From positions 96,001-160,000 of the forward strand of contig JBBRLI010000002.1 of NCBI GenBank assembly GCA_038231455.1: DNA of 64,000 nucleotides, given 5' to 3'. The notes beneath the pieces were generated by a model that was not told the DNA's origin, did no database searches, and saw only the letters and a list, made by a program, of their open reading frames with translations. Below, piece after piece: positions 12,305-17,793 of the stretch (position 1 is its first letter; every line of letters begins with the position of its first letter). The translations under genes and the position numbers were made by a program. This DNA comes from Vulcanimicrobiales bacterium (GTDB lineage Bacteria; Vulcanimicrobiota; Vulcanimicrobiia; Vulcanimicrobiales; Vulcanimicrobiaceae).

Positions 12305-13285
12305 ATGGTCGAAGAACGCAGTGAACCGAAAGTCGTCCTCTTGGTCCGCCTGCTAAGCGCGATCGATGAAGGCGTGTACGCGTTCGAAGAACTCAAAGTG
12401 CGTATCGCCGACGGAAAACCACCCTCGACGCGCAGCCTGCGCCGGTATCTTGCGGTACTCGCCGACGCCGGTTTTCCGTGGTATTTCGACCGCGCCGCGG
12501 GCACCTATCGTTTTTCAGACGGCTACAGCCTCAAGCGCCTGAACTTAAGCCAGCGCGAACTCTTCGGCCTCGTCACGCTCAAGCGACTAGGAACCTCGCT
12601 CGGCGGCACACTCGCAACCTACATCGACGAGGCGACGACCAAACTTCTGGGGTCGAGCGACCGCCGGACGAACGCCGGAATCGAATCCACGCCGTCCTTC
12701 ACGATCCGTCTCGATGAAGTCGCGCTCGATGCGACCGTCGAGCGCGTATTCGACACGCTGCAAACCGCCGAGCGGGCGCGCCGCCGCGTCAGTTTCGCCT
12801 ACGTCGACAAACGCGGCACGGCGAGCGACCGCCGCGTCGATCCATACGGATTTATCGTTTCATCCGGCCGCATCTACATGGTCGGCTACGACCACGGACG
12901 GAGCGACATGCGCGTCTTTGCCGTCGACAACATCAGCGACCCAAAAGTGCTTCCGGCAACCTACGAGAAACCGGCCGACTTCAACCTCGATGCCTTCGGC
13001 GTGAATTCCGTCAGCGGCGTGATCCAAACGGAATCCCTCGAGTCGATCACCGTCGCGTTTTCCGCAATCGTCGCAAAGGCCGCCGCAGCCTCCAACGTCG
13101 CGCGCGAACGCGAGGTCGTTCGACGCGCAGACGGATCGGTTGAGATCACGTACCGCGTCGGCGATCCACTCGAGATCGTGCGCTGGTCGATGGGCTGGGG
13201 AGCCGAAGCCGAAGTCGTCGCGCCCGCAAGCGCGCGAGACGCCGCACGCGAAATCGCGCAGCGTCTCGCCGCGCGTTACGGTTAG
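12305..13285 (+). CDS. HTH-WYL-WCX transcriptional regulator
   Basis: N-terminal wHTH (STRSLRRYL), RRVDPYG...IYMVGYD...RVFAVDNI WYL core, WG.EAEVVAP..AR C-terminal WCX. Confidence 0.88.
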   Translation: MVEERSEPKVVLLVRLLSAIDEGVYAFEELKVRIADGKPPSTRSLRRYLAVLADAGFPWYFDRAAGTYRFSDGYSLKRLNLSQRELFGLVTLKRLGTSLGGTLATYIDEATTKLLGSSDRRTNAGIESTPSFTIRLDEVALDATVERVFDTLQTAERARRRVSFAYVDKRGTASDRRVDPYGFIVSSGRIYMVGYDHGRSDMRVFAVDNISDPKVLPATYEKPADFNLDAFGVNSVSGVIQTESLESITVAFSAIVAKAAAASNVAREREVVRRADGSVEITYRVGDPLEIVRWSMGWGAEAEVVAPASARDAAREIAQRLAARYG

Positions 13286-13551
13286 TCCCCACCCCACTGC
13301 CGCGCTTCGGGCGGAGCATAGTGCGCCTCGATGTCGTCCGGCGCGACGTCGCGTCCGATCGTCGATTTGATGATCGCAGCAATGTCCGCATCCGATTTCC
13401 CCGCCTCCCGGAACTGCTCGATCTCATCGCTGATCATCCCGACGAACGCAGGCAACGGAAAGCGTTCCGCATCCATGCCGAGGGAGCGACGAAGCTCCCG
13501 CTGAACGGCGACAGCCTCTTGAGCGGAAAAGGTCGAAGACTCTTCATGCAT
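13282..13551 (-). CDS. small hypothetical protein
   Basis: 89-aa ORF with a GGAG RBS, divergent from marR and overlapping the WYL stop. No family recognised. Confidence 0.65.
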   Translation of the reverse strand: MHEESSTFSAQEAVAVQRELRRSLGMDAERFPLPAFVGMISDEIEQFREAGKSDADIAAIIKSTIGRDVAPDDIEAHYAPPEARQWGGD

Positions 13552-13598
13552 CGTGATTTCTCCCAAACAGCGCGGCCGAGCGGGCCGTTAGCTGCATA

Positions 13599-14084
13599 AT
13601 GCAGGTTTCAGTGGAGGACGTCGTTCAGCAAGAAGCGCGGGCGTTCCTTGCGGCCTGGTTCGACACGCGCCGCATCATACAAACGTTCAATTTCAACCGC
13701 TTCCAACAAGAAGGCTTGAGCGCCACCCAGTTCATTCTCCTCAACATGATCGGTGAACAAAAAACCGGTGCAACGGCCGCCGACCTCGCGCGCCGCCTCA
13801 ACGTCGACGTCACGACAACGATGCGCACCGCCGAGAGCCTCGCAACGCGCGGGCTACTACGCAAAGCAAAAGACCCAGCCGACCGCCGACGCTCGTTCCT
13901 CACACTCACCGCCAAAGGCCGCAAACTCCACGCCCGAATCCACGAAGCATTCATCGATCAAATCGTAGCCGCATTCGGTGCAATGCCGGCGAGCGCGCGA
14001 ACCGGACTAATCGCGGGCCTGTCTGCGTTCGTGGAAGCCACGAACGCAGCAGACGTTCTCCTTATGAACAAGCGCCAAAGCTAA
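13599..14084 (+). CDS. MarR family transcriptional regulator
   Basis: LSATQFILL...DLARRL...L..RGLL....DPADRR....LT.KG. The start may instead be GTG at 13611. Confidence 0.9.
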   Translation: MQVSVEDVVQQEARAFLAAWFDTRRIIQTFNFNRFQQEGLSATQFILLNMIGEQKTGATAADLARRLNVDVTTTMRTAESLATRGLLRKAKDPADRRRSFLTLTAKGRKLHARIHEAFIDQIVAAFGAMPASARTGLIAGLSAFVEATNAADVLLMNKRQS

Positions 14085-14151
14085 CCACAAAGTCGATCCC
14101 TCCTATTCTCTCAAAGCATTTTTTTGAAAGATCAAAGGCGATTCGTCCCCA

Positions 14152-14189
14152 GAGTTCCGGGTGAGATGGCACCATCTCGCCCGGAACTC
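14152..14189. repeat. near-perfect 18-bp inverted repeat (REP-like hairpin)
   Basis: GAGTTCCGGGTGAGATGG-CA-CCATCTCGCCCGGAACTC with one T-G wobble and no downstream T-tract on either strand. Confidence 0.7.
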
Positions 14190-14207
14190 AAAACCACGAT
14201 CCAAAAG

Positions 14208-14252
14208 CAAAAAAATAGCACAAACGCCCGGTGCGAAGGCACCGGGCGTTTG
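14208..14252 (-). terminator. intrinsic terminator of minus-strand intergenic transcript
   Basis: Perfect 14-bp stem CAAACGCCCGGTGC/GCACCGGGCGTTTG (14221-14252) followed on the minus strand by TGCTATTTTTTT. Confidence 0.85.
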
Positions 14253-14437
14253 AAAGCGCGAGATTCAGAGCTTTTCCCTTTCGAGTCTCCGAAGCGTTTC
14301 TGCGAAGCGTGTACCCCGCAAAACCGGTATCCGTGTCTCGATCGACATCGGCGTCCTTGGCACCACGTTCCTTCGAACTTTCGTTCTCTGGTCGGTGAGC
14401 CGCGAGCCTCGCAACTCGCCCGTCATTGCTGACGTGC
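14210..14437 (-). ncRNA. candidate structured non-coding RNA (about 225 nt)
   Basis: Bounded by a consensus-like promoter and a strong terminator, with several GNRA-capped hairpins. No convincing protein is encoded. Confidence 0.55.
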
Positions 14438-14441
14438 CCCA

Positions 14442-14470
14442 ATAGTAGCAGGCCAAATTTCGGTTTGCAA
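14442..14470 (-). promoter_or_regulatory. sigma70-type promoter with extended -10
   Basis: TTGCAA (14470-14465), 17 nt ending in TGC, TACTAT (14447-14442). Confidence 0.75.
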
Positions 14471-14538
14471 TGCCAAATGCGGGCGTTCCACAAGTCGTCC
14501 ACAAGAAAACGAACTTATTCGCAGAATTCCACAGCCTT

Positions 14539-15045
14539 ATGCACAAATTGACGGCTCTCTTGATGTTCGCACTGCTCGTTTTGGGTGTCCCGGCAAGCGC
14601 CCAAGGGGTTCCACAAGGCGCTCCGGTCGACGGCATTCCCTGTGATACAGCAGAGGGCGCGTTGCTCCACTTCCACCCGCATGTGTCGATCAGCGATCAT
14701 GGCAAGCCGGTCGTTATTCCGGAAGACGTCGGCCGTCCGCTGGCCACGCCGTGTTTATACTGGATCCACACACATACGCCGGACGGAATCGTCCACATTG
14801 AATCGCCCCGGTACCGGACGTTCAAGCTTGGGGAGTTTTTCGATATTTGGGCGCAGCCGCTATCGCGGTCAAACATTGCCGGCGTGAAGGTGCGTAAAGG
14901 TGAGAAAGTGATGGTTTGGGTGGCCGGCCGGTTGTATTCCGGTGATTTACGGAAGATCGAGCTTGCCCAGCACCTGGATATCGACATTGCCGTTGGCCCT
15001 CCGTATATGAAGCCCCGCGCTTTTACGGCCTGGAACGGCAACTGA
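14539..15045 (+). CDS. secreted hypothetical protein with His-rich putative metal site
   Basis: Signal peptide, then HFHPHV...CLYWIHTHTPDGIVHIES...LGEFFDIW. Confidence 0.75.
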   Translation: MHKLTALLMFALLVLGVPASAQGVPQGAPVDGIPCDTAEGALLHFHPHVSISDHGKPVVIPEDVGRPLATPCLYWIHTHTPDGIVHIESPRYRTFKLGEFFDIWAQPLSRSNIAGVKVRKGEKVMVWVAGRLYSGDLRKIELAQHLDIDIAVGPPYMKPRAFTAWNGN

Positions 15046-15135
15046 GCCGACAATAATTGCTGGGCGAGCCCTTCCTTCCTTGAACAGTCGGTCGGGTAGG
15101 GGTGCGTAGAATCTTGTACTGAACCGTACCAGACG

Positions 15136-15987
15136 ATGTCGACGACAAACGCTACGCGCCAAATTTTTACCCTGCTTCAGGACCAGCGCGAGCGTATTTT
15201 TCCGCGCTGGATCGAAGCGGTCGGGGCGCGTTCGCGCGGGCGTCGCAGTTCGGCGGAAACGCAGGTCGAACTCCGGCCGATCTTCGACGCGCTCGTGGCG
15301 GGCGTGTCGGGCGGCGGCGTCAACGTCGACAATCCGGCATATGATGAGTTGCGCGCGATTCTTGCGGAATATTCGCGGGCACGCGCCCGTCAGGGTTTTA
15401 CGCCTTCGGAGACGGCGTTTGCCATCTTCGCACTTCGCGAAGCCGCACTCGATACGATTCATGACGCGAGCGGCAGCCTCGACTATGCGGACACCGCGGC
15501 GTTCTCGAAACTCGTCGATGGTCTGGGACTCATCACGTTCGAAGCCTTCGCGCTTGCGCGCGAAACGGTCATCGTCAACCAGAACGAACAACTGCTCGAA
15601 CTCTCGACGCCGGTGATCAAGCTTTGGGATGGGATCCTCGCGGTGCCGCTTGTGGGGACGCTCGACTCGGCCCGCACGCAAGTGGTGATGGAGGGTCTTT
15701 TGCAAGCGCTGGTCGACACCGGCAGTTCGCATGCCATCATCGATATCACCGGTGTTCCCGCCGTCGACACGCAAGTCGCGCAGCATTTGCTCAAGACGGT
15801 TGTTGCCGCGCGGCTCATGGGCGCGGAGTGTGTCATTTCGGGGATCCGGCCGCAGATCGCGCAGACGATCGTCGACCTTGGGATCGAATTCGGAGACATT
15901 CCGACCAAAGCCAATCTCGCTGACGCGCTGAAGCTTGCGTTTGCGCGCGCTGGTCTGCACGTGCGTAAGCTGGGCCTGAACGCGTGA
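15136..15987 (+). CDS. rsbR: stressosome scaffold RsbR (N-terminal sensor domain plus STAS)
   Basis: LLELSTPVIKLWDGILAVPLVGTLDSART, IIDITGVPAVDTQVAQHL, GIRPQIAQTIV. Confidence 0.92.
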   Translation: MSTTNATRQIFTLLQDQRERIFPRWIEAVGARSRGRRSSAETQVELRPIFDALVAGVSGGGVNVDNPAYDELRAILAEYSRARARQGFTPSETAFAIFALREAALDTIHDASGSLDYADTAAFSKLVDGLGLITFEAFALARETVIVNQNEQLLELSTPVIKLWDGILAVPLVGTLDSARTQVVMEGLLQALVDTGSSHAIIDITGVPAVDTQVAQHLLKTVVAARLMGAECVISGIRPQIAQTIVDLGIEFGDIPTKANLADALKLAFARAGLHVRKLGLNA

Positions 15988-16385
15988 GCGAGCGTATCCC
16001 GGTCGTCAAAATCGGCCGGGTGCTGATTGCGTCGATTCCAAGCGATCTTGGGGACGATACCGCGCTCCTCTTGCAAGAAGATCTCTCGAAACAAATCGTC
16101 GAGCACGCCGCAAGCGGTGTCATTATCGATATTTCGGCGCTCGATATCGTCGACACGTTCATCGGCCGCATGCTGGCGCGGCTCGCGTCGATTTCGCGCG
16201 TCCTCGATGCGTTGACGATCGTCGTGGGAATGCGACCAGCAGTCGCGATCACCCTGACGGAACTCGGGCTCACGCTTGGCGGTGTGCGCACCGCGATCAA
16301 CAGCGATCGCGCGTTCGAGATTCTGCAATCACTCGACGTCCGGGAAGAAGACGATCTCGCGGATCTCGCCGACCACGTTTCGTGA
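15984..16385 (+). CDS. rsbS: stressosome STAS protein RsbS
   Basis: GVIIDISALDIVDTFIGR...VVGMRPAVAITLTELGL. Confidence 0.92.
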   Translation: MSERIPVVKIGRVLIASIPSDLGDDTALLLQEDLSKQIVEHAASGVIIDISALDIVDTFIGRMLARLASISRVLDALTIVVGMRPAVAITLTELGLTLGGVRTAINSDRAFEILQSLDVREEDDLADLADHVS

Positions 16386-16789
16386 GTGCGGATAGCGACG
16401 GCGAGCGCGTCGATATCTCGACCGACGCGGACGTCGTACGGGTGCGACAGGCCGTCCGCGCGTTTGCGCTGCGGGCCGCGCTCTCGATCGTCGATCAAAC
16501 GAAAATCATCACCGCGGCAAGCGAACTCGCGCGCAACGCCCTTGTCCACGGCGGTGGCGGATTTGCTCGCATCGCCTTAATCGAAGAAAACGGACGCGTC
16601 GGCGTCCGCGCCGCCTTCGAAGATTCTGGCCCGGGAATCGTCGATCTGGAGCGGGCTCTTGTGGGCGGCATCAGCACGGCCGGCGGCCTTGGACTCGGCT
16701 TGTCCGGCAGTCGCCGACTCGTCGATCTCTTTGCGCTTGACTCCGATTCGCGCGGGACGCGCGTCACGGTGACTAAGTGGAAACGCTGA
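16382..16789 (+). CDS. rsbT: Ser/Thr kinase RsbT
   Basis: TAASELARN, DSGPGI, GLGLGLSGSRRLVD, GTRV HATPase boxes. Confidence 0.92.
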   Translation: MSADSDGERVDISTDADVVRVRQAVRAFALRAALSIVDQTKIITAASELARNALVHGGGGFARIALIEENGRVGVRAAFEDSGPGIVDLERALVGGISTAGGLGLGLSGSRRLVDLFALDSDSRGTRVTVTKWKR

Positions 16790-17793
16790 GCCGTGTCGAG
16801 GACGTGTCGTGGTTTCGCGTCGAGGATTCAAGCGCGCCGGGAGCGGTGCGGCGCGCGGCCGTTACGCTTGCCGCGCGACTCGGATACAGCGAGCACCGCA
16901 CGGGAGAAGTGGCGATCGCCGCAACGGAACTTGCGACGAATTTGCATCGACACGCCATCGAAGGGACGATCGTGCTCCGAATTCGGCGCGACACGTTCGC
17001 TGCCGCAATCGAATTGCTCGCGATCGATGGCGGCCCCGGCATCGCCGATCTCTCGGTGTTCGCGCGCGACGGAAAATCAAGCGCCGGGTCGCTCGGCATT
17101 GGCCTTGGCGCTGCGATGCGCCTTGCAACGTGGTTCGATGCCTATTCGCTCCTCGGACGCGGGACGGTCATGATCGCGACCTTTTGGCCGGACGAGCGCA
17201 GCCATATCGGCACGAACATCGCCGGGTTGACCCGCGCAATGATCGATACGGAACCCTGCGGCGATGCGATCGCGCATCGCGAGAGTCCCGAGGTGACGAC
17301 CGTGTTGCTAGCAGATGGACTCGGACACGGAGAACTCGCTGCGGTCGCCTCCCGCGCAGCGGTTCGGGCGTTTGCAATCGATGAGGAGCCGCAGCGCGAT
17401 CCGGTGGCGACGTTACACCTGTTGCACCCCGCCCTCAAGACCACGCGCGGAGCGGCAGTGGGCATCCTGCGGCTCGATTGGGGAAAGCGAGCGATCACCT
17501 TCGCCGGCGTCGGGAATATCGAGGGTTGGGTCGATGATGGCGAGCGGCGTCGATCGCTTGCCTCGACACCCGGCATCATCGGCAGCAACACGCGGAAGAT
17601 CCGAGAATATACGCTCCCGATGCCAACCGCCGGACTCGTCATTCTTCACACGGACGGGTTGACGGGCAAGTGGAATTTGGACGATTATCCCGGGCTGCGC
17701 GGACGCGACCCGCATCTCGTCGCTGCGACGCTGATGCGCGATGCCGGTATCCGAGCGGACGACCGCGGCATCGTTGTCGTGAAGGTCGCATGA
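16777..17793 (+). CDS. HATPase plus SpoIIE/PP2C phosphatase (RsbX-like)
   Basis: TELATNL, DGGPGI, GSLGIGLGA followed by CGD, ADGLGHG, HTDGL and DD. Confidence 0.88.
   Translation: METLSRVEDVSWFRVEDSSAPGAVRRAAVTLAARLGYSEHRTGEVAIAATELATNLHRHAIEGTIVLRIRRDTFAAAIELLAIDGGPGIADLSVFARDGKSSAGSLGIGLGAAMRLATWFDAYSLLGRGTVMIATFWPDERSHIGTNIAGLTRAMIDTEPCGDAIAHRESPEVTTVLLADGLGHGELAAVASRAAVRAFAIDEEPQRDPVATLHLLHPALKTTRGAAVGILRLDWGKRAITFAGVGNIEGWVDDGERRRSLASTPGIIGSNTRKIREYTLPMPTAGLVILHTDGLTGKWNLDDYPGLRGRDPHLVAATLMRDAGIRADDRGIVVVKVA

Follow-up and report, generated by a model that had tools for sequence, protein, structure and literature searches.

A candidate structured RNA family of WPS-2/Vulcanimicrobiota bacteria, encoded beside a WYL-domain regulator

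Comparative genomics has brought to light several orphan structured non-coding RNAs, among them raiA, OLE and HEARO. The bacterial Y RNAs are encoded beside rsr, the gene of their Ro60 partner, and this synteny reflects a ribonucleoprotein. Ms1 is an actinobacterial RNA that adopts a 6S-like extended rod with a central bubble and binds the core of RNA polymerase. Here we describe a predicted non-coding RNA gene on a stretch of 64,000 nucleotides (the window) from a Vulcanimicrobiales bacterium (assembly GCA_038231455.1, contig JBBRLI010000002.1, positions 96,001 to 160,000). The gene lies at 14436-14209 on the minus strand, and we assign its product to an RNA family restricted, within the searches made, to one family of the WPS-2/Vulcanimicrobiota ("Eremiobacterota" being, we take it, an alternative name of WPS-2). 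The RNA class is previously undescribed and absent from Rfam 15; searches of the open-access literature, which also covered small RNAs (sRNAs) tied to WYL regulators or DnaA boxes, gave no description of this RNA, nor any paper on non-coding RNAs in WPS-2/Vulcanimicrobiota.

Like raiA, OLE and HEARO, the WPS-2 RNA appears as a stand-alone RNA with a multi-helix fold supported by covariation and a narrow range, whose neighbours are the main clue to its function; it differs from them in matching no Rfam 15 family, in its taxon, in having its own promoter with phased repeats and in forming tandem arrays. With the Y RNAs it shares a gene kept beside that of a protein with a fold suited to binding nucleic acids, but here the neighbour is a transcription factor with helix-turn-helix (HTH), WYL and WCX domains, the association is read from synteny, and there is no similarity to Y RNA. 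Its size is like that of Ms1 and 6S, abundant-type stand-alone sRNAs of 180-300 nt, from which it differs in fold and taxon. The neighbour has the HTH-WYL-WCX architecture of DriD, PafBC and CapW, in which WYL is a Sm-like nucleic-acid sensor (PMC6789036); their known effector is single-stranded DNA (ssDNA), and the excerpts of the corresponding reports describe no dedicated adjacent RNA gene (PMC10853764, PMC9186387, PMC11804915, PMC11662680). A last parallel is CcnA of Caulobacter, a CtrA-dependent non-coding RNA that base-pairs with the ctrA and gcrA mRNAs (PMC8959179). Synthesis of the WPS-2 RNA would similarly be coupled to a master regulator, of replication or of the cell cycle, but its presumed link to DnaA is drawn from the sequence of the promoter boxes.

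A predicted stand-alone RNA gene

That 14436-14209 is a real stand-alone gene, equipped with promoter and terminator, for a strongly structured non-coding RNA is well supported by the sequence and by comparison with relatives, in particular with the sister species of the same genus (G001; the genome of the window is G000), as detailed in the following features.

14442 to 14470, minus strand: promoter, with -35 hexamer TTGCAA (14470-14465), 17-nt spacer and -10 hexamer TACTAT (14447-14442).
14209 to 14436, minus strand: predicted sRNA transcript of about 228 nt, with its inferred start at or next to CACG (14436-14433) and its end within the U-tract.
14421 to 14434, minus strand: hairpin P1, CGUCA-GCAA-UGACG, with a GNRA loop (GCGA, still GNRA, in G001).
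14402 to 14419, minus strand: hairpin P2, GCGAG (14419-14415) with CUCGC (14406-14402), whose 8-nt loop UUGCGAGG (14414-14407) is the 5' strand of the predicted pseudoknot.
14359 to 14401, minus strand: arm P3, GGCUCAC...GUGGUGCC, tipped by GAAC-GAAA-GUUC (14386-14375), from the predicted fold; relatives have a GNRA-tipped arm in this position.
14264 to 14356, minus strand: genus-specific 3' domain with P4 (14356-14326), P5 (14322-14299) and P6 (14293-14264), from the minimum free energy (MFE) and centroid folds.
14257 to 14263, minus strand: 3' strand of the predicted pseudoknot, UCUCGCG, complementary to UGCGAGG of the P2 loop (14413-14407) through 7 pairs, 2 of them G-U.
14209 to 14252, minus strand: intrinsic terminator from a terminator scan, with a 14-bp stem (14252-14221, 10 G-C pairs, 4-nt loop) and a U-rich tail.

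A preliminary description of the window, made from its letters, had proposed such an RNA, and its elements are indeed present: the promoter TTGCAA-N17-TACTAT, the 14-bp terminator with its U-tract, and, in a hairpin-rich body of about 190 nt, the hairpins CGUCA-GCAA-UGACG (14434-14421), GAAC-GAAA-GUUC (14386-14375) and UUCGGAG...CUCUGAA (14293-14264). It also drew a helix GAGUUGCGAG...UCGCGGCUC at 14397-14417; a hairpin does lie there, but it is better drawn as the P2 stem GCGAG/CUCGC, as the relatives keep it. The 238-nt segment has a folding energy of -99.5 kcal/mol (z = -3.76, none of 200 shuffles being equally stable) and the RNA taken from its inferred start one of -95.2 kcal/mol (z = -3.40, 1 of 200). 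That start was deduced from the spacing to the -10 hexamer and from the CACG kept in relatives. The locus is intergenic, between a convergent MarR-family gene and a divergent open reading frame (ORF) of 168 aa, a setting that makes the RNA a stand-alone gene and not a leader. A riboswitch or cis-regulatory leader was ruled out, since in the window and in relatives the terminator is followed by a convergent gene. The sRNA is present in G000 as a single copy.

The RNAs of G000 and G001 differ at 25 of 229 positions (manual count), and none of the 71 predicted pairs is broken. Two GNRA loops are altered and both are still GNRA; the tip of P3 reads GAAU-GCAA-GUUC in G001, with its pairing and GNRA loop retained; P5 and P6 contain one compensatory change, from U-A to G-C, beside several one-sided ones; and the terminator keeps its pairing (G-C to G-U) with one change in its loop. 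A 5'-3' closing stem that RNAalifold formed with GGGG at 14440-14437 was set aside as probably spurious, GGGG lying upstream of the inferred start.

In G000 a 53-codon frame from ATG to TGA runs through the RNA (14426-14265), and codon-type selection on it had been named beforehand as the sign that the transcript is the mRNA of a small protein. No such selection is seen. Differences from G001 fall 7/6/5 by codon position and make 1 synonymous against 11 non-synonymous codons, the stop codon is lost in G001, no ORF is common to the family, and an ATG occurs at that site in only 5 of 34 family RNAs; a 53-aa mRNA is thus hardly credible.

Nowhere in the window does any of the 4227 families of Rfam 15 attain its gathering score, and between 14050 and 14600 only chance-level matches to two terminator-like hairpins were obtained at E ≤10, so that the covariance-model check proposed in the preliminary description returned no family at the locus. 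Its statement that the RNA is neither RNase P RNA nor signal recognition particle RNA agrees with the location of both elsewhere in the genome. It had also left a choice between a new RNA class and a distant Ms1-like RNA, of which the first part agrees with the class lying outside Rfam 15 and the second finds no support. A stand-alone structured RNA of about 200-230 nt could in principle bind RNA polymerase as 6S and Ms1 do, but there is no match to 6S (RF00013) in 14050-14600 at E ≤10, the best match of the genome to the 6S model lies elsewhere at full length (C38:4065-4249, 28.7 bits), and the fold consists of hairpins and a pseudoknot and not of a rod with a central bubble. As the named carriers are WPS-2/Vulcanimicrobiota and not Actinobacteria, the resemblance to Ms1/MTS2823, judged by taxon and fold and not against the Ms1 sequence, was not borne out, and we consider this type of RNA very improbable. 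The match at C38:4065-4249 (locus L028), below the 46.4-bit cut-off, is probably the divergent 6S RNA of this genome.

Relatives, covariation and taxonomic range

The family is represented by 348 genomes; genome tallies of BLASTN, model, pattern and orthologue searches include unpublished genomes, while alignments, models and structural claims do not. Plain BLASTN of the window RNA against 41 relatives matched the sister species G001 only (88% identity). A covariance model built from these two sequences (R1) found two tandem copies in G053, where the region upstream of the promoter is conserved too; R1 matches at L034-L036 and L038-L048 were discarded as coding-like, with neither promoter nor terminator. 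The pattern TTCTTGTGGA-N60-90-CGGRCGA gave matches in 73 of the 348 family genomes, against 8 for the reversed control, and reading of the matches identified genuine promoter-plus-RNA loci in 46 of the 73, distributed over genera g1 (2), g46 (1), g68 (1), g53 (5) and g34 (37); one of them, G329, is unpublished. Genus g34 has 3-4 tandem copies within about 1.5 kb in all 6 of its genomes in a phylum sample. At L097 and L100 of this genus, extra RNA copies downstream of the first have the -35 and -10 hexamers and P1-P2 without an exact TTCTTGTGGA, so that the pattern search gives too low a count of copies. A long, near-perfect inverted repeat, which gave a spurious mir-BART3 match, adjoins the sRNA cluster at L094:1244-1384 (g34), and similar GC-rich palindromes follow other g34 copies.

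For comparison, 34 RNA copies were extracted, and 30 RNAs of g34 and g53 were aligned by structure. The alignment comprises P1, P2 (GCGAGC/GCUCGC), a variable GNRA-tipped arm, a long P4 hairpin closed by CGA/UCG and an extended terminator stem, and the P2 loop ACGAGAA is complementary to UUCUCGU directly before the terminator. With the pseudoknot included, 96.2% of 1539 cells are paired, compared with 30-45% after a shift of the partners by 1-3 columns; in 25 of 52 pairs both bases vary, and none of 500 shuffles attains any of five measures. The P1 stem covaries (UA in 15 and CG in 13 of the 30) and the P2 stem is invariant or covarying, being GCGACUG/CAGUCGC in G053. In the pseudoknot helix, pairing amounts to 96.6% and three pairs covary (A-U/G-U/G-C, C-G/U-A and A-U/U-G). 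In two sequences the loop reads GUGAG and the 3' segment CUCAC while P2 remains GCGAG/CUCGC, and the pseudoknot is therefore favoured over a nested alternative. Comparison of these sequences thus gives good support to a predicted family core made of P1, an adjacent P2 with an 8-10 nt loop, a pseudoknot from this loop to the preterminator segment enclosing variable GNRA-tipped arms, and an intrinsic terminator.

To what extent does the window RNA belong to this family, hereafter type A? A second covariance model (R2) was built from g34 and g53 only, without the genus of the window. It scores 58.8 bits in G075, about 55 bits for both G053 copies and 28.9 bits at 14252-14436 of the window, whose runner-up scores 14.6 bits, and it aligns the 3' domain of the window RNA as an 83-nt insertion. 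Between 14510 and 14433 the window has the type-A promoter, with box TTCTTGTGGA, TTGCnn, 17-18 nt, TAnnAT and a CACG start; P1 followed by CGG(G/A)CGA and P2 occupies 14434-14402 in the R1 and R2 alignments; the P2 loop has its preterminator complement, with covariation in the relatives only; and the gene lies 0.9 kb from an orthologous HTH-WYL-WCX gene, the MarR gene standing between. The P4 domain of g34 and g53, CGAAGUUCGACGCC...GGCGAGGACGCGCGCAGAUCG, is not found, the window having three other hairpins there, and its RNA thus represents a divergent subtype.

The assignment has its weak points. R2 also yields coding-sequence false positives of 24-35 bits elsewhere, and 28.9 bits alone are therefore no proof of membership. 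The pseudoknot bases are identical in G000 and G001, so that the pseudoknot of the window relies on homology, and the nested alternative is the computed MFE fold of the window RNA, in which GCGAG and CUCGC each occur twice. The R2 matches of 24-35 bits that we rejected as coding-like are in G017, G113, G011, G023, G111, G406, G096, G220, G025, G411, G198 and G079; two extra matches in G075 were rejected as well, and all rejected matches were inspected except one of 23.9 bits at G075 1692778. Membership is argued from the features held in common jointly, namely promoter register, CACG start, P1, a near-identical P2, the loop complement and the terminator, and a genus-specific, divergent type-A RNA is, on these grounds, a well-supported assignment.

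A second type, B, was discovered via its promoter box and not via a model. Twenty loci of WYL orthologues were taken from genera without a known type-A RNA. R2 found no RNA in these 20 loci (best 15.3 bits), and 11 of them carry a like promoter box that faces the WYL gene from about 100-500 nt past its 3' end. The type-B RNA, of about 190-215 nt, has a different sequence and the same plan as type A: it starts with CACUUC, continues with P1 and with a P2 of GCGAY/GUCGC that covaries to GCGGUU/AACCGU, and could form a pseudoknot between ACGUAU of the P2 loop and AUACGU just before the terminator (UACGAAC/GUUCGUA in G093). These pseudoknot pairings were read from the sequences, G093 being four columns out of register in the type-B alignment A6. 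No Rfam family matches the type-B RNA. BLASTN with one type-B RNA found it in 49 of 151 family genomes and 24 of 78 genera. Within the phylum sample, 43 of the 71 genomes from this family have type B, as against none of 79 from other families, and 52 of 72 family genomes have type A or B; after inspection of the R2 matches, no genuine type-A RNA was found in the other 20 families of that sample. A scan for the P2 module in 185,579 species genomes returned at least 121 loci, of which 80 were examined; the three real ones come from records titled candidate division WPS-2 or Vulcanimicrobiota, the other 77 score at most 25.6 bits, and nothing firm on other phyla emerged.

The tandem copies of some genera, the five GGA triplets of the window RNA and the presence of a CsrA gene in the genome (C58:3233-3385, 84 bits) led us to try a CsrA-titrating sponge of the CsrB/RsmY type. 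It was rejected as quite implausible, because the relatives have only 2-6 GGA, type B has none of the conserved ones, and the GGA conserved in g34 sit in helices and not in hairpin loops.

Promoter repeats and the WYL neighbour

The sRNA promoter agrees with the sigma-70 consensus at 8 of 12 positions (manual count), and a consensus promoter scan of 13500-15200 called none, leaving it under the threshold. In 34 aligned related promoters the same register before the RNA start is found (-35 TTGCnn, 17-18 nt spacer, -10 TAnnAT), and for this reason we consider the promoter credible despite the silent scan, as the preliminary description had it. Upstream of it lies an array of repeats.

14484 to 14545, minus strand: array of five DnaA-box-like 9-mers in the same orientation, read from the sequence.
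14545-14537, 14533-14525 and 14523-14515, minus strand: 9-mers 1 to 3 of the array, TGTGCATAA, TGTGGAATT and TGCGAATAA, read from the sequence.
14503-14495 and 14492-14484, minus strand: 9-mers 4 and 5, TGTGGACGA and TGTGGAACG, read from the sequence.

The box starts are spaced by 12, 10, 20 and 11 nt. Relatives have the box TTCTTGTGGA in the corresponding position, about 63 nt ahead of the RNA start; promoters of genus g34 have five xGTGGA boxes with starts about 10 nt apart, and type-B promoters carry the related boxes GTGGATAAC, GTGCATAAC and TTGTGGAnAnnnTGTG. The best-kept promoter box is TGTGGATAA or TGTGGACAA, which we take to be the reverse complement of the DnaA box. In the 3.7-Mb assembly of G000, clusters of at least three TGTGGA occur at the sRNA promoter only, and the 160 nt upstream of dnaA contain five boxes with at most one mismatch from TGTGGA(T/C)AA, the sole such cluster of three or more. 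In 4 of 5 complete genomes, the sRNA promoter has one exact GTGGATAA and dnaA is flanked by 1-3 copies at up to about 1 kb; each of these four genomes has only 8-35 copies in total. In G041:C1, pairs of GTGGATAA on the same strand stand exactly 1455 nt apart at seven places (e.g. 192516/193971), which suggests a repeated mobile element with the motif at both ends.

Transcription would thus start from a sigma-70-type promoter preceded, some 25-30 nt upstream of the -35 hexamer, by TGTGGA(Y)AA-like 9-mers of one orientation, phased at about one helical turn, through which DnaA or another direct-repeat-binding protein might control it. Binding of DnaA is what we infer from the boxes; a response regulator with affinity for direct repeats would account for the array equally well.

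The genes around the RNA are as follows.

12305 to 13285, plus strand: gene of an HTH-WYL-WCX regulator, DriD/PafBC-like (Pfam WYL 2.1e-19, WCX 4.3e-13).
13599 to 14084, plus strand: MarR-family gene (Pfam MarR_2 2.6e-13), converging on the sRNA gene.
14539 to 15045, plus strand: ORF of 168 aa without a Pfam family, diverging from the sRNA gene.

The solved structures nearest to the WYL protein are DriD (8tp8; PMC10853764) and PafBC (7p5x, 6sj9), with E-values from 1e-12 to 7e-7, and its orthologue is present in 332 of the 348 family genomes. In five of five other type-A genomes, as in the window, one of the 1-3 WYL genes lies close to the RNA, within about 0.4-1.3 kb in those five. The WYL gene of G001 (C22:72631-73605, plus strand) is directly adjacent to the RNA (73739-73926, minus strand), so that the MarR gene of the window appears as an insertion; a MarR gene between WYL and RNA is found in G000 only.

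For type B, coordinates of the sRNA and the WYL gene on a single contig are known in 34 genomes. The two genes are convergent in every case, and their gap is at most 500 nt in 30 of the 34 (median 57 nt; 1.4, 2.3, 5.9 and 7.2 kb in the others). Without the unpublished G020 these values become 33 of 33 and 29 of 33. This geometry, in which the type-B RNA match ends as near as 10 nt from the WYL coding region, could suggest a convergent cis partner of the WYL mRNA, sharing a bidirectional terminator and acting by complementary 3' ends on mRNA stability or termination. Such a partner is improbable, as the MarR gene intervenes in the window, the RNA of G075 and G053 follows the WYL gene and is transcribed in the same direction, and a 3' overlap has no need of an elaborate conserved fold.

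On the promoter side, the gene next to the RNA is not constant. Six genera have an aromatic amino-acid lyase there, g8 has an extracytoplasmic function (ECF)-type sigma factor, g34 and g86 have an ATP-binding cassette (ABC) ATPase, g53 has an amidohydrolase and g1 a secreted protein. The lyase gene (PF00221, E about 1e-190; L269-L274 and L277) diverges from the type-B sRNA in the six genera, with the array in the shared divergent promoter region.

Further features of the neighbourhood were noted. Between the MarR stop codon and the terminator of the sRNA there is a second strong hairpin (14152-14189), which has an 18-bp stem GAGUUCCGGGCGAGAUGG...CCAUCUCACCCGGAACUC and is interrupted in G001 by a 43-nt insertion; it may be a MarR terminator or the scar of an insertion. 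Past the promoter side of the sRNA, the region 15136-17793 holds a stressosome-like gene set, with RsbRD_N and STAS (15136-15987) and HATPase_c_2 and SpoIIE/PP2C (16777-17793). At L266-L268 (g14) and L261, which have no sRNA, the 3' neighbour of the WYL gene resembles by eye the 168-aa ORF of the window, as though nothing but the RNA gene had been lost by deletion.

A possible role in the circuit of the regulator

Overall, the best explanation of these data would be an sRNA of a WPS-2 family, transcribed from a box-array promoter and acting in the circuit of the adjacent WYL regulator, to which we give a probability of roughly 55%. A role in the WYL circuit is the most likely because the RNA stays beside the WYL orthologue while its other neighbour changes. 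The RNA would then act with or under the DriD/PafBC-type regulator: it could serve the Sm-like WYL domain as nucleic-acid partner or decoy, or be an output of the same stress response, and the 3-4 tandem copies in one genus would increase its dose. The WYL domain has a Sm fold, and RNA or other nucleic acids were proposed as its ligands (PMC6789036); it is possible that the RNA binds the domain or mimics its effector. A bolder version remains speculative: the RNA may be a dedicated effector or decoy that takes the place of ssDNA in the WYL pocket, with its synthesis set by DnaA occupancy, thereby coupling replication initiation to a non-SOS DNA-damage regulon, and with tandem arrays tuning the dose.

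Several observations weigh against a role in the WYL circuit or against its DnaA component. Only two of the five window boxes are within one mismatch of TGTGGA(T/C)AA, the 8-mer GTGGATAA is not enriched genome-wide relative to a reversed control, and no TGTGGA boxes were evident in the upstream regions of the WYL genes. The sRNA and the WYL gene are 5.9 kb apart in G223 and 7.2 kb in G175. Nine of the 20 WYL loci (four in g85, three in g14, and g77 and g48) are without such an RNA and have a coding region directly against the WYL gene; an adjacent copy is therefore no requirement of the regulator. The order lyase-RNA-WYL in six genera makes the linkage partly one of inherited gene order, and it is from synteny that the association with WYL is proposed. 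No DriD-type palindrome was evident upstream of the WYL genes, and the DriD site ATACGAC-N7-GTCGTAT was not seen by eye, without a pattern search, in the sRNA promoters or WYL upstream regions. Finally, the effectors demonstrated to date for DriD, PafBC and CapW are ssDNA and not RNA (PMC10853764, PMC9186387, PMC11804915, PMC11662680).

Much of this would also be expected of an ordinary trans-acting base-pairing sRNA with targets elsewhere, for which the proximity of WYL would be inherited order without function. This strong rival accounts for a stand-alone gene with its own promoter and terminator, for tandem arrays such as those of g34, known from several families of base-pairing sRNAs, for a local order conserved as lyase-RNA-WYL and for the WYL loci without the RNA. 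We nevertheless hold it to be the less probable of the two, a possibility to be kept in mind, as the conserved parts of the RNA are mostly paired in helices and the pseudoknot and leave little conserved single-stranded sequence that could serve as a seed, types A and B have a common topology with almost no common sequence, which is unexpected for conserved seed-target pairing, and adjacency to WYL outlasts changes of the other neighbour and of orientation.

If a role in the WYL circuit is retained, the persistent pairing of the RNA with a core DriD/PafBC-like regulator offers a concrete and testable partner hypothesis. It would touch on the idea of an RNA ligand put forward by the describers of the WYL domain (PMC6789036), for which later work found ssDNA. 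Phased DnaA-box-like repeats as a promoter would, if true, be an unusual form of sRNA control. The WPS-2/Vulcanimicrobiota are almost wholly uncultivated, and a new, apparently pseudoknotted RNA family is common in one large family of these bacteria.

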